A stretch of DNA of 27,160 nucleotides from a virus (lineage: Duplodnaviria; Heunggongvirae; Uroviricota; Caudoviricetes), in the IMG/VR virus record IMGVR_UViG_2521172589_000011, one strand, 5' to 3'. Below, one piece after another: positions 21,001-27,000 of the stretch. Positions within the stretch are counted from its first letter, which is position 1, and the number at the start of each line of letters is the position of its first letter. A program made the position numbers.

Positions 21001-24000
21001 ATGCGCCTCAATGAACGGTTCAAAGATAGGATTAATCGAGGTCATTTTCCGAATAGAGTGCTCATCGGTGATGTTTCAATCTGGATTGCGCCGCCGTCTT
21101 TGCCTGTTAGCTCGTGATCAACCTTGTCGCGCCATTTATCCTTCTGTCGATTCTTAAGCCAGAAGATGGCAGCTGTTGTATCAGGCGGGTAATACTTCTC
21201 AAGCGGAGTTTCGACAATTCTGTTTTCAATAACACGAATATCGATGTCTGGAGCCACGAAGCCCATAGCGCGTTGATAAAGACGATCACTAACTTCTGCA
21301 TCAGCGACGGCCTTACCCTTTTTTATGGACTCCGAAAACTTAGGATAATCAAGCTTCCACTTGTTAATAGTTGACTCACTGACTTCAAAGAAATCAGCAA
21401 GTTCTGCATCGGTGTAGCCCAGCAAGCACAGTTTGCGTGCCTGTTCGGCATACGCCTCTTGATACTTTGTTGGGCGCGCCATGTTTATGCTCCTGTAGTG
21501 AACAGGTCTAACGCTTCCTTCGATTTACGCACCGCTTCGATAGTGCGGGTCGTGATATCTGAATTAGCGCCACCTGACTGGAAGTGAATTTTGAATAGCT
21601 CAAGCTTCAGCTCGTCAGTGCCAATGAATTGAAATGCTTCTTCTGCGGCTGCGTTCTGGTTCATGACCAGTTTGTAAATCTCTAACTGGAATTTCTGTTC
21701 TTCAGTCATGGGAATAATCTCTGCCATTATTGGCTCCGTTTATCCGTTAAAAGGGATATCAGTTAAGTTATCCCGTGTAGGGTATAAGCCATTATCAAAG
21801 CCACTCTGTAGGGAATGGCTTTTGTGATGGCGGTAATGACTCCAACTTATTGATAGTGTTTTATGTTCAGATAATGCCCGATGACTTTGTCATGCAGCTC
21901 CACCGATTTTGAGAACGACAGCGACTTCCGTCCCAGTCGTGCCAGGTGCTGCCTCAGATTCAGGTTATGCCGCTCAATTCGCTGCGTATATCGCTTGCTG
22001 ATTACGTGCAGCTTTCCCTTCAGGCGGGATTCATACAGCGGCCAGCCATCCGTCATCCATATCACCACGTCAAAGGGTGACAGCAGGCTCATAAGACGCC
22101 CCAGCGTCGCCATAGTGCGTTCACCGAATACGTGCGCAACAACCGTCTTCCGGAGCCTGTCATACGCGTAAAACAGCCAGCGCTGGCGCGATTTAGCCCC
22201 GACGTATCCCCACTGTTCGTCCATTTCCGCGCAGACGATGACGTCACTGCCCGGCTGTATGCGCGAGGTTACCGACTGCGGCCTGAGTTTTTTAAATGGC
22301 GGAAAATCGTGTTGAGGCCAACGCCCATAATGCGGGCGGTTGCCCGGCATCCAACGCCATTCATGGCCATATCAATGATTTTCTGGTGCGTACCGGGTTG
22401 AGAAGCGGTGTAAGTGAACTGCAGTTGCCATGTTTTACGGCAGTGAGAGCAGAGATAGCGCTGATGTCCGGCGGTGCTTTTGCCGTTACGCACCACCCCG
22501 TCAGTAGCTGAACAGGAGGGACAGCTGATAGAAACAGAAGCCACTGGAGCACCTCAAAAACACCATCATACACTAAATCAGTAAGTTGGCAGCATCACCA
22601 GTTTGAGCATCTGGTTAAAGAGTTATGCAACCGTGAAATCCTGTTATCTCAGGCGCAGACGCTACAGGATATTCAGCAGCATATCGAGACTTTAGGTGTG
22701 TCACTTAGCATGGCTATTGACCAGTTCGTGGAGAGTAAATCATGAGAGGACTTGCATACAATCCCGGCATTCTTCCGGCAGAAATGATTATTCGCCAGCG
22801 CGTAAAGCCAATGCCATCGAGAGAGGAATTGCTTAAGAGAAATTCTTTTCCATCAGTGAATCAAAACAAATATCTGAATGCGATGTGGCGTAAAGGAGGC
22901 AACCAGTGAGCAAGATTGACTATCAGGCACTGCGTGAGTTAGCAAAACAGGCAACACAGGGCGAATGGGTCGCATTCATTTCGCCGGGCACTGATACATA
23001 TGCGGTGCATACGCCGGGGGATGAACGTTGCGGAGACATTATCAAATGGCCTGGCTTTGACGGCCAGAAAAATGCAGAGAACAACGCAGAATTTATCGCA
23101 GCTTTCAACCCTAAAGTAGTGCAGGCACTGCTGGATGAACGGGAAAGAAACCAGCAATATATCAAACGCCGCGACCAGGAGAACGAGGACATTGCGCTAA
23201 CGGTAGGGAAGCTGCGTGTTGAGCTTGAGGAGACAAAATCAAAACTCAACGAGCAGCGTAAGTATTACGAAGGTGTTATCTCGGATGGAAGTAAGCGCAT
23301 AGCAGAACTGGAAGCACGGGAAATAAAACCAGCCAAAGGTGAAGTTCTTGTCGTTGTTTCTGGTTTTACTGGTTGCGGAAAAAGCGCCATTGCCGGGGAA
23401 ATAGAAATCGCGATGAAGGCTATTGGTGTACCGGTTCAGTGGACTAATGGCGATGCGGAAAAGCGCATGACAGGAGCTGACTGGCTGACAGCGATTGAGA
23501 TGTACAAACCAACAGTGCGCATCGTGGAAGTTAATGTGCCACGCGCCGCAGGCATTCGCATCAAAGAGGGTGAGTAGTGCGTGTGGCATGTATCGGCTTG
23601 TTACCGTACCCGACTCGTTTTTGGGCTTCTGCGCTAATTGCAAAGCCACATGTCCTGATAGCTGACAACATCATCCCGGCACCAAAGCGCCGCCATACCG
23701 GTATTGCAGCGGCACGACGAGCAGCAAAGAGACGCAGGAGAGCAAAACGATGAAAAACCGTAAAGCAAAGATTCTGTTAGCTCGCAGAAACGGTGTTGGG
23801 GTCTGGCGATGGGTGAGGATTAGTAACAGACGAGTGAGGTTGATGGGGTGTTGCGGGGTGATGGGTCACAGTTGTTGCAAAAAGCCCAGCGCGGCGCAAA
23901 ACCGCTGGAAAAACTACTTGCGGACTAAAGGAGAGTGATATGGCTATCGCTGCAAGTTACACCATGCATCTCTATTGTGATTGTCGCCAGTGTACGGAAG

Positions 24001-27000
24001 GTGTATATCCAGTGCCAGACTTCGGTGAGTATATCGGTACGTCATGGTCTGGTTGTGCAAAAGAGGCCCGTAAAGACGGGTGGCGAATAAGCAAAGACAA
24101 AACACGTACTTTTGCGCCCGGGCATAAAGTTTTGAGGATTAACACATGACCACTATTACCAAAGAACGTATTGAATTGTTCATTAAAAATCCGCTTGAAA
24201 ACGGGCTTACTCGTGGCGAACAAATGGAACTGGCACGAATTGCACTGGCATCACTGGAACGCGAACAGATTCGCCACGAGCATGCCAAATGGTCTGACTC
24301 CACATTTGGCTGCGTTGGCCCCATTGGTCCACTGAAACACCTCTCAAAAGAGGCACTGGAAGCCGCAGCCGAACCAGACGATCTTAGCGAGTGGGCTGAT
24401 ATGCAGTTCCTGTTGTGGGATGCACAGCGCCGTGCTGGTATCAGTGATGCTGAAATTACCGCTGCTATGGAAAATAAATTGAAGATCAACATGGAACGCC
24501 AGTGGCCTGAACCAAAAGATGGTGAGCCTCGCTTGCACATTAAAGAACCCGGCAACTCTCCGGTAACTCCGGATGGCTGGATAAGCTGTAGTGAGCGAAT
24601 GCCGGATACCAAAACAGCCGTTCTTGTTGCCGTGGAGTTTGACAGGAAAGGTGACTGGCGAATGAAATGGGCGACTTACATCCCGGGTCATCCTGACGCT
24701 AATGATGGGTGGATAATTCCTGGTGCGTCGTGGAAACCGTCACACTGGATGCCGCTACCAGAGCCTCCACTTTGAAAGCGAAGCTTATACATATCTTTTA
24801 CATCAGCAATCTATTGTTAATCTCCAATCAATGTTACGTTGTCATCTCACTCATGCTTTGGAGGTAGTGATATGTCTTGTCCAAAATGCGGTTCTGGAAA
24901 TATTGCAAAAGAAAAAACAATGCGTGGATGGTCTGGTGATTATGTGTGCTGCGATTGCGGATACAACGACTCTAAAGACGCATTTGGAGAGCGTGGTAAA
25001 AACGAGTTTGTTAAAATTAATAAAGAACGCGAAGGCAACGAAAAAAGCTAATTTATTTATTCATATATGAAAACAATGTAACCAATATTCGAATTGAAGA
25101 ACTGAAAGAACACCAAGCCGCCTGATGGCGGTTTTTTATTGCCTGATTTGCAGGTTCGATTCCCTATTCGGAGATAGCACTCATGCAACACGAACTACAG
25201 CCTGATTCACTGGTTGATTTGAAATTCATCATGGCTGATACTGGCTTCGGTAAAACCTTCATCTATGACCGGATTAAGTCCGGAGACCTGCCTAAAGCCA
25301 AAGTTATCCACGGGCGAGCAAGATGGTTATATCGTGACCATTGTGAATTCAAAAATAAGCTCTTAAGCCGCGCCAATGGGTAAAATAGCGGGTAAAATAT
25401 TTCTCACATCTAAAAAACACCATTCCAATCAATCCCCTGCCGCCTCAAGTAGATGTCTGCAGGGGACACCAGATACCCTTCAAACGAAATCTACCTTCAC
25501 CCCGTAAAAGATGGGTTTGGCAGCACACTTGCCTTATATCTACTCATTTTTACTGCAACAGGTTGAAATCTCAGCACTGTCAGAAAGCGCTGATGACTAA
25601 ACAGCCCTGAGCCGGGCGATGTAACCATCACACAGAATCCTGATAGCGAAATATGGCGTGACTCGATACTTCACTCCGCAATGCATTCCTTGATGAATTC
25701 GCAGGACCGTGATACACGGGACAGGTCACTGAATGACGACAATGTCCTGGAAATCAGCGAACCGCGCATCTGAAGTACATTTGAGCGACTGTACCAGAAC
25801 ATGAATGAGGCGTTTGGATTAGGCGATTATTAGCAGGGCTAAGCATTTTACTATTATTATTTTCCGGTTGAGGGATATAGAGCTATCGACAACAACCGGA
25901 AAAAGTTTACGTCTATATTGCTGAAGGTACAGGCGTTTCCATAACTATTTGCTCGCGTTTTTTACTCAAGAAGAAAATGCCAAATAGCAACATCAGGCAG
26001 ACAATACCCGAAATTGCGAAGAAAACTGTTTGGTAGCCTGCGTGGTCAAAGAGTATCCCAGTCGGCGTTGAAAGCAGCACAATCCCAAGCGAACTGGCAA
26101 TTTGAAAACCAATCAGAAAGATCGTCGACGACAGGCGCTTATCAAAGTTTGCCACGCTGTATTTGAAGACGGATATGACACAAAGTGGAACCTCAATGGC
26201 ATGTAACAACTTCACTAATGAAATAATCCAGGGGTTAACGAACAGCGCGCAGGAAAGGATACGCAACGCCATAATCACAACTCCGATAAGTAATGCATTT
26301 TTTGGCCCTACCCGATTCACAAAGAAAGGAATAATCGCCATGCACAGCGCTTCGAGTACCACCTGGAATGAGTTGAGATAACCATACAGGCGCGTTCCTA
26401 CATCGTGTGATTCGAATAAACCTGAATAAAAGACAGGAAAAAGTTGTTGATCAAAAATGTTATAGAAAGACCACGTCCCCACAATAAATATGACGAAAAC
26501 CCAGAAGTTTCGATCCTTGAAAACTGCGATAAAATCCTCTTTTTTTACCCCTCCCGCATCTGCCGCTACGCACTGGTGATCCTTATCTTTAAAACGCATG
26601 TTGATCATCATAAATACAGCGCCAAATAGCGAGACCAACCAGAAGTTGATATGGGGACTGATACTAAAAAATATGCCGGCAAAGAACGCGCCAATAGCAT
26701 AGCCAAAAGATCCCCAGGCGCGCGCTGTTCCATATTCGAAATGAAAATTTCGCGCCATTTTTTCGGTGAAGCTATCAAGCAAACCGCATCCCGCCAGATA
26801 CCCCAAGCCAAAAAATAGCGCCCCCAGAATTAGACCTACAGAAAAATTGCTTTGCAGTAACGGTTCATAAACGTAAATCATAAACGGTCCGGTCAAGACC
26901 AGGATGAAACTCATACACCAGATGAGCGGTTTCTTCAGACCGAGTTTATCCTGAACGATGCCGTAGAACATCATAAATAGAATGCTGGTAAACTGGTTGA

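Follow-up and report, generated by a model that had tools for sequence, protein, structure and literature searches.

The early-left operon of P22-like phages and its gene 24 antitermination have been described (PMC8022706), and the part of this operon considered here has counterparts in lambda's "exo-xis" region (PMC8614690) and the "ea" genes of P22 (PMC8022706). The exo-xis genes are transcribed from pL and shift lysogenisation and the timing of induction (PMC8614690, PMC7093339), and ea22 of lambda and Phi24B was found by genetics to be pro-lysogenic (PMC7093339). In recombination modules of the KplE1 type, the excisionase lies at one end and the integrase at the other (PMC2951348); the function of the excisionase, TorI, is described in PMC2951348 and PMC3509656. 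The locus examined here lies in a 27,160-nt stretch of Caudoviricetes DNA (IMG/VR record IMGVR_UViG_2521172589_000011; this whole stretch is called the window), in which seven genes on the + strand occupy the interval between the end of an IS1 element (22599) and an intrinsic terminator (25115-25141). With high confidence, the cluster represents that part of an early-left (PL) operon which is distal to the promoter and proximal to xis, in a P22-like prophage of the HK620/Sf6 type; the prophage sits at the argW/csc site in a chromosome of the Escherichia coli 55989/O104:H4 lineage, and the operon has been decapitated at IS1.

The gene cluster and the loss of its upstream part

Across positions 22600-25400, the window matches E. 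coli 55989 and the O104:H4 outbreak genomes with 100% identity, which begins at 22600. In 55989, the upstream neighbours of the same genes are, in order, a gene for a LexA-family repressor, several small genes, erf, a gene for an anti-RecBCD protein (abc), and a DUF5405 gene; downstream come torI and then the chromosomal csc genes (cscB). By the annotation of both genomes, the cluster lies between erf/abc and xis, on the same strand of a P22-like prophage; the initial annotation, made from the sequence of the window alone, had placed it in a lambdoid early-left accessory region, and this placement held, with the region being of the P22/HK620 kind. Phage HK620 is 99% identical over 24701-25471 (the eag-torI stretch), its homology ends inside its own annotated attP core, and its int gene is 96% identical to the integrase gene at 1-1144. 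A TorI-type excisionase is found beside attR and an integrase at the opposite end of the prophage, as in the KplE1/HK620 recombination module. The element was assigned to the HK620/Sf6-type P22-like prophages, with a KplE1-type module, because of the 55989 context, the identity to HK620, the integrase, and the P22-type tailspike, antirepressor, and terminase. The locus is already known, being identical to published 55989/O104:H4 sequence and nearly identical to HK620, and the operon type is well described. A literature search for the prophage in O104:H4 returned nothing.

The cluster is laid out with almost no intergenic space. The 3′ remnant of a DUF5405-family gene (48 codons, 22600..22745, +), cut by IS1 and present as a full 282-nt coding sequence in 55989 and O104:H4, shares an ATGA (22742-22745) with the gene for a 55-aa DUF2737 protein (22742..22909, +). 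The latter overlaps, through GTGA (22906-22909), the GTG-started gene of a 223-aa Ead/Ea22-like protein (22906..23577, +), which is joined by TAGTG (23575-23579) to a 58-aa open reading frame (ORF) that also starts with GTG (23577..23753, +). An ATGA (23750-23753) links this to a 62-aa ORF (23750..23938, +), and a 1-nt spacer without overlap (TGAtATG, with the last stop nucleotide at 23938 and the ATG from 23940) separates that ORF from one of 69 aa (23940..24149, +). The 69-aa ORF overlaps by ATGA (24146-24149) a 209-aa gene (24146..24775, +), whose stop, ending at 24775, is followed by a 96-nt spacer and the ATG of eag (24872..25051, +; 59 aa). Overlaps are therefore present at five of the seven junctions (ATGA three times, GTGA and TAGTG once each). 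The initial annotation had every boundary overlapping the next start, which is right for these five and wrong for the two spacers. Pairing with the anti-Shine-Dalgarno sequence reached -6.0 kcal/mol or better at all eight accepted starts, compared with 12.7% of the other 166 ATG, GTG, and TTG triplets of the region, and each gene's Shine-Dalgarno site sits within the end of the preceding gene. The ORFs, their coordinates, and a strong terminator were all borne out; the one start that had to be moved was that of the last gene, for which TTG 24839 had been proposed. That codon has no Shine-Dalgarno site (+1.5 kcal/mol), whereas a strong site (-10.6) precedes ATG 24872, which RefSeq, HK620, and P22 all use as the start.

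The terminator between eag and torI (25115..25141, +) is predicted to consist of an 8-bp G+C-rich stem (25115-25134) with a 4-nt UGAU loop, followed by a T-run, UUUUUUAUU. The hairpin has a delta G of -13 kcal/mol (z = -2.4 against shuffles), and for phage HK140 the identical sequence has been annotated as a rho-independent terminator. Many lambdoid phages (lambda, HK140, HK630, 933W, Stx phages) share a 68-nt segment that includes it (25078-25145), with 95-100% identity. They have little else in common here, and the segment resembles a conserved module boundary immediately upstream of xis. Downstream lies torI (25183..25383, +; the RefSeq name), the excisionase, or recombination directionality factor, of the KplE1/HK620 module, which is 100% identical to HK620 hkaC. 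At 25138-25176, where the sequence is identical to that of HK620, the authors of the HK620 genome annotated a cII-dependent "phage integration" promoter and a cII-binding site. The attR core (25457..25472), within which the HK620 homology ends at 25471 in the attP core, marks the right end of the prophage.

The window lacks the operon's head. An IS1 element (768 bp, insA/insB) lies at 21832..22599 on the - strand with inverted repeats at both ends; no 9-bp target-site duplication was found at 21832-22599. In O104:H4, an IS1B-family transposase is annotated by RefSeq at the same left junction, beside the DUF2560 and terminase genes. To the right of this same IS1, O104:H4 retains 2.15 kb that are absent from the window, comprising a gene fragment, cIII, kil, erf, abc, and an intact DUF5405 gene, and because these 2.15 kb are kept there, the window evidently bears a further IS1-adjacent deletion beyond the O104:H4 state. 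The genome of 55989 is without IS1 at the corresponding place, and the immunity and replication genes that lie in it between the terminase side and the early-left genes are missing from the window. As reconstructed from these alignments, the deletion took cIII, kil, erf, abc, and half of DUF5405, together with everything from there to the terminase genes; the exact IS1 junction of the window was seen in no complete genome of the collection. In P22-like phages, the stretch deleted here contains PL and the antiterminator gene, and its loss would leave the cluster promoterless. A consensus scan of the + strand found no sigma-70-like site from 22500 through torI (25383), the sole match on that strand being at 25830-25857. 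The cluster is a decapitated remnant, probably silent or expressed by read-through only, and the decapitation appears to be recent, since the cluster ORFs are still identical to those of 55989. The proposal of one tightly coupled transcript must be restricted in the same way: the architecture is that expected of a single translationally coupled transcript in the ancestral phage, and does not necessarily describe this locus, where the upstream end with the PL region has been deleted beside IS1.

In the intact phage, the cluster would be transcribed from PL after derepression. RNA polymerase modified by an N-like antiterminator would then read through the hairpin after eag into torI, and ribosomes ending one small ORF would restart on the next by way of the overlapping or near-touching stops and starts. 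The conserved junction sequences probably double as crossover points for the swapping of cassettes between phages, because at least eight Ea22 C-terminal domains share one end junction and the eag-terminator block is common to P22, HK620, and HK629. By analogy with the exo-xis genes, the small proteins most likely act soon after induction to adjust host physiology and the choice between lysis and lysogeny. Several considerations weigh against this account. The promoter scan was a crude consensus match, and a promoter at the IS1 junction or inside the cluster could be missed by it. That the cluster is transcribed in this way, that its translation is coupled, and that the terminator is read through is in each case deduced from the architecture. 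The suggested tuning of host physiology draws on analogy, with a function known for two of the seven proteins (Ead/Ea22 from genetics, DUF550 from an enzymatic assignment). Finally, given the cII-dependent promoter annotated in HK620, torI may not rely on read-through alone.

Proteins encoded by the cluster

Most of the proteins had been called unrecognisable in the initial annotation. Curated Pfam families were found for four of the seven and PHROG families for all seven; scans of every ORF against Pfam, NCBIfam, PHROGs, and PADLOC gave names to four proteins, and for the three small ones returned only PHROGs of "unknown function". The clustered cysteines that had been pointed out (GCCGVMGHSCC, YCDCRQC, and CPKCG...CCDCG) are all present, and those of the 69-aa protein are conserved and those of Eag kept in hkaD, but the cluster of the 62-aa protein is not conserved. 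The DUF2737 protein (PF10930, E 9e-32) corresponds to HK620 hkaI, to which it is 98% identical.

The Ead/Ea22-like protein matches PF13935 with an E-value of 4e-45 (154.2 bits, compared with a Pfam gathering cut-off of 27), through its residues 2-136 and positions 1-139 of the 139-position profile. Its C-terminal ~85 residues (~137-223, encoded by 23310-23577) contain a Walker-A-like motif, GFTGCGKS, and residues 137-185 give weak APS-kinase/AAA matches. A homologue search with this C-terminal domain recovered only near-identical Ead/Ea22 proteins and no functional lead, and a PDB sequence search with the Ead protein gave nothing significant. At least eight unrelated Ea22 C-terminal domains occur in related loci, all ending at the same AGIRIKGGE/TAATG junction. 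The C-terminal domain found here differs from that of the pro-lysogenic ea22 of lambda and Phi24B.

The 58-aa protein is very basic (pI 12) and belongs to phrog_13831 (E 8e-41), and the 62-aa protein is a basic member of the "MKNRKAK" family (phrog_1380, E 9e-32). Members of the 62-aa family have invariant ends, MKNRKAK... and ...KPSAAQNRWKN, around a variable middle. The family is often represented by two tandem diverged copies joined by an ATGA overlap (for example, phiV10 p50/p51), in which the ends are kept even in the DNA and the middles are highly variable. The cysteine cluster of the window's protein, GCCGVMGHSCC, is replaced in relatives by KYYGMMDCGFC, FTNTADIVMC, or other sequences; it is lineage-specific and, as judged from these alignments, forms no conserved metal site or functional motif.

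The 69-aa protein (phrog_926) carries a conserved CxCxxC and a C-terminal His, and is predicted to bind zinc. Its gene has a ratio of nonsynonymous to synonymous polymorphism (pN/pS) of 0.18, with third codon positions accounting for 22 of the 36 variable sites, and is clearly under purifying selection as measured by these substitutions. C13, C15, and C18 are kept in every close relative, and C13 is also kept in all of 39 distant members, which carry an extra Cys in a "C.APGH" motif. Profile searches gathered about 305 clusters at 50% identity, nearly all of them standalone proteins of 60-90 aa. The family has no Pfam model, and no PDB relative was found by sequence (profile search) or by fold. 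The AlphaFold2 model (mean predicted local distance difference test, pLDDT, 80.8) had no PDB match with E < 1, and its BFVD matches were uncharacterised phage proteins only. There is a slight chance that the 69-aa protein represents an uncurated family of small zinc-binding phage proteins with a specific host-takeover or counter-defence activity, possibly exerted with its DUF551 neighbour. The 69-aa homologue is followed, immediately or after a short distance, by a DUF551 gene in the three loci that were examined. In a Kosakonia radicincitans prophage, the homologue is found in the nin region between DnaB and NinE/RusA, directly upstream of and overlapping a DUF551 gene, which hints at a recurrent pairing of the two; in phiV10, the whole module follows the replication gene. 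Because of these two placements, the modules that bear the 69-aa gene are regarded as mobile early-accessory cassettes (of ea and nin regions) that are not tied to the left operon.

The 209-aa protein is a mosaic of an N-terminal module, a DUF550 domain (PF04447, E 3.5e-42, 143 bits against a gathering cut-off of 23), and a DUF551 domain (PF04448, E 5.5e-21, 75.6 bits against 22). Its first ~37 residues and its DUF551 end match HK620 hkaE, the middle of which is replaced here by DUF550. In 55989 and O104:H4, RefSeq splits the uninterrupted ORF into a "pseudogene" fragment and a coding sequence that starts at ATT 24323 without a Shine-Dalgarno site; the ATG at 24146 has such a site and the ATGA overlap, and the full protein is held in GenBank records. 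The mosaic make-up of the protein probably explains the split. A PDB sequence search with the DUF550-DUF551 protein gave nothing significant. DUF550 is a MazZ-like pyrophosphohydrolase that hydrolyses dATP and dGTP (PMC8342488). A Z-genome (2-aminoadenine; PurZ/DatZ) context seems unlikely for it here, because neither purZ nor datZ was found in the RefSeq annotation of the corresponding stretches of 55989 (10.8 kb) and O104:H4 (8.3 kb) or among the scanned ORFs of the window, several ORFs of the structural region lying outside that scan. If active, the enzyme would most likely act outside the Z-genome pathway.

Eag is the equivalent of P22 eag and HK620 hkaD; its DNA is 98% identical to P22 eag and its protein 98% identical to hkaD. 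The four-Cys pattern is kept in hkaD, in a comparison that, at this level of identity, contains no diverged homologues. Assignment to the Lar (restriction-alleviation) family was tried and rejected: the matches to PF14354 (23.4 bits, cut-off 28.6) and TIGR03655 (14.9 bits, cut-off 39.6) fall short, and unrelated zinc-ribbon families match equally well, none of them reaching its curated cut-off. Eag is best described as a predicted generic four-Cys zinc ribbon.

Alternative explanations

The 58-aa and 62-aa ORFs might not be genes; 23577-23938 would then be conserved non-coding DNA, either a spacer or a linker for recombination, or else the remains of a longer gene in another frame (phrog_12350). 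Both ORFs are left unannotated by RefSeq in 55989 and O104:H4, a frame-2 ORF at 23495-23665 and the 62-aa ORF both match phrog_12350, and the high conservation of the DNA makes intactness by itself weak evidence. The in-frame pN/pS is only moderate (0.42-0.44 for the two, 0.44 for the 62-aa ORF), and the AlphaFold2 model of the 62-aa protein is poor (pLDDT 62.8, predicted template modelling score 0.27), with the cysteine cluster in its least confident part. However, both ORFs have Shine-Dalgarno sites and are intact and coupled in all 80 related viral contigs from IMG/VR, where the 58-aa ORF begins at a TAATG (61 loci) or TAGTG (17) overlap and always ends at ATGA; most relatives start this gene with ATG. 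Among 26 distinct alleles of the 58-aa ORF, 18 of 36 variant sites are synonymous in the proposed frame, compared with an expected 26%, and the enrichment is confined to that frame (9/35 and 4/35 in the others). The indels examined in it, of 21 and 3 nt, are in frame, and the length variants in IMG/VR are also of whole codons. Both ORFs are annotated by PGAP in other genomes and by GenBank in O104:H4, and the GenBank records of O104:H4/55989 hold the exact 62-aa, 69-aa, and 209-aa proteins. A single long frame-2 gene (155 aa, phrog_12350) was considered and rejected, because every relative examined has its stop, apart from the 933W type with a 21-nt deletion, and the long ORF is an artefact. 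In 933W, this deletion lies in frame within the 58-aa gene and removes the stop of the overlapping frame, producing a spurious long ORF of the phrog_12350 type; the annotated L0068 of 933W is a 69-aa homologue with an over-extended start, and the 58- and 62-aa genes are unannotated there. The non-coding explanation is highly improbable, and the two ORFs look like genuine genes, in keeping with the observation that small ORFs omitted from the gene track of the window are conserved in related prophages.

A separate question is whether eag, its 96-nt spacer, and the terminator form a self-contained "moron", expressed from its own promoter in the lysogen, instead of eag being the last gene of the coupled operon. 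The stretch 24777-25141, which comprises the spacer, eag, and the terminator, travels as a unit: P22, HK620, and the lambda-like HK629 have it with at least 98% identity, and it is bounded precisely by the upstream stop codon on one side and the last base of the T-run on the other. In addition, eag is the only gene of the cluster that is uncoupled from its neighbour. A consensus scan, however, found no sigma-70-like promoter in the spacer, and this arrangement is considered unlikely. About equally doubtful is an anti-defence island, in which a host immune system would be inhibited by the DUF550 enzyme or by at least one of the small proteins that are Cys-rich or basic. The cluster adjoins abc in the intact phage, Lar and HNH genes occupy the same place in related loci, the Ea22 C-terminal domains are hypervariable, and the hydrolysis of dATP and dGTP by DUF550 enzymes could affect nucleotide-based defences. 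Against this, scans of Pfam, NCBIfam, PHROGs, and PADLOC gave no match to a characterised anti-defence protein, a search in which no dedicated anti-defence library was included. The Lar matches of Eag lie under both curated cut-offs, the fold search with the 69-aa protein led only to uncharacterised phage proteins, and the published exo-xis phenotypes concern the timing of lysogeny, not immunity (PMC7093339, PMC8614690). PADLOC reported nothing except a match of TorI to "mad1" (E 8e-14), which probably reflects generic similarity among AlpA-type helix-turn-helix proteins rather than a role in defence. The suggestion in the initial annotation that anti-defence functions reside here accordingly found no backing among known defence families, and the early-left accessory operon remains the preferred reading of the cluster.

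Surrounding features and comparison with known systems

The remainder of the window to the left of IS1 (1-21727) is the rest of the same prophage. It begins with the HK620-like integrase (1-1158), followed by an AT3-SGNH acyltransferase (1375-3297), a P22-type tailspike with its head-binding domain (3368-5347), an antirepressor (5448-6392), structural genes up to the terminase (19633-21045), and a DUF2560 gene (21485-21727). No tRNA gene was found in the window, and an Rfam scan of 21400-26000 (E <= 1) returned no RNA family.

What is new is modest, namely the uncurated 69-aa family and a set of annotation gaps. For the pathogen genomes 55989 and O104:H4, RefSeq lacks two genuine small genes (58 and 62 aa) and wrongly splits the 209-aa DUF550-DUF551 gene. 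The Ea22-58-62-69 module is also carried by Shiga-toxin (Stx) phages (933W and VT2-Sakai), and about one in five complete E. coli genomes contains DNA that it matches; because of this spread, a function found for its proteins would have wide relevance. The 69-aa family is well suited to curation, or to a study of structure or function.

The closest described relatives are the early-left operon of HK620 (hkaI-hkaC; Clark et al. 2001, GenBank AF335538) and those of the P22-like phages (ea genes, eag, xis), which have the same order and orientation and end with eag, the terminator, xis (torI), and attP/attR. HK620 resembles the window in DUF2737 (98% identical), Eag (98%), TorI (100%), the DNA of 24701-25471 (99%), and the integrase (96%). 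It differs in having hkaH, hkaF, and an hkaE without DUF550, where the window has the 58/62/69-aa trio and the DUF550 insertion. The Ead protein of HK620 reaches only ~51% identity, across the N-terminal half, and the window also lacks the operon head, through the IS1-associated deletion.

The exo-xis region found in lambda and the Stx phages occupies the same place, between the recombination genes and xis, is transcribed early from pL, and has small ORFs that come after a gene of the Ea22 family. The Ea22-58-62-69 module of the window is 85-93% identical to the DNA of 933W (L0069 to L0068) and of phiV10, and the terminator segment is held in common as well. In contrast, orf60a, orf63, orf61, and orf73 are absent from the cluster of the window, and the recombination system of the intact relative is erf/abc, compared with exo/bet/gam in the exo-xis phages. 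Published functional data on the exo-xis region are limited to orf60a/61/63/73, ea22, and ea8.5 and do not extend to the three small proteins of the window (PMC8614690).

A third parallel is the yfdQRST-torI end of KplE1 (CPS-53) in E. coli K-12, which has the same module of TorI and IntS-type integrase and the same argW site. Among the loci related to the window, one contains a "YfdS family" gene. KplE1 is likewise a defective remnant without an immunity region, in which accessory genes lie directly upstream of torI (PMC2951348), and its yfdQRST cluster, when overexpressed, affects DnaA-dependent initiation of replication (PMC4776307).

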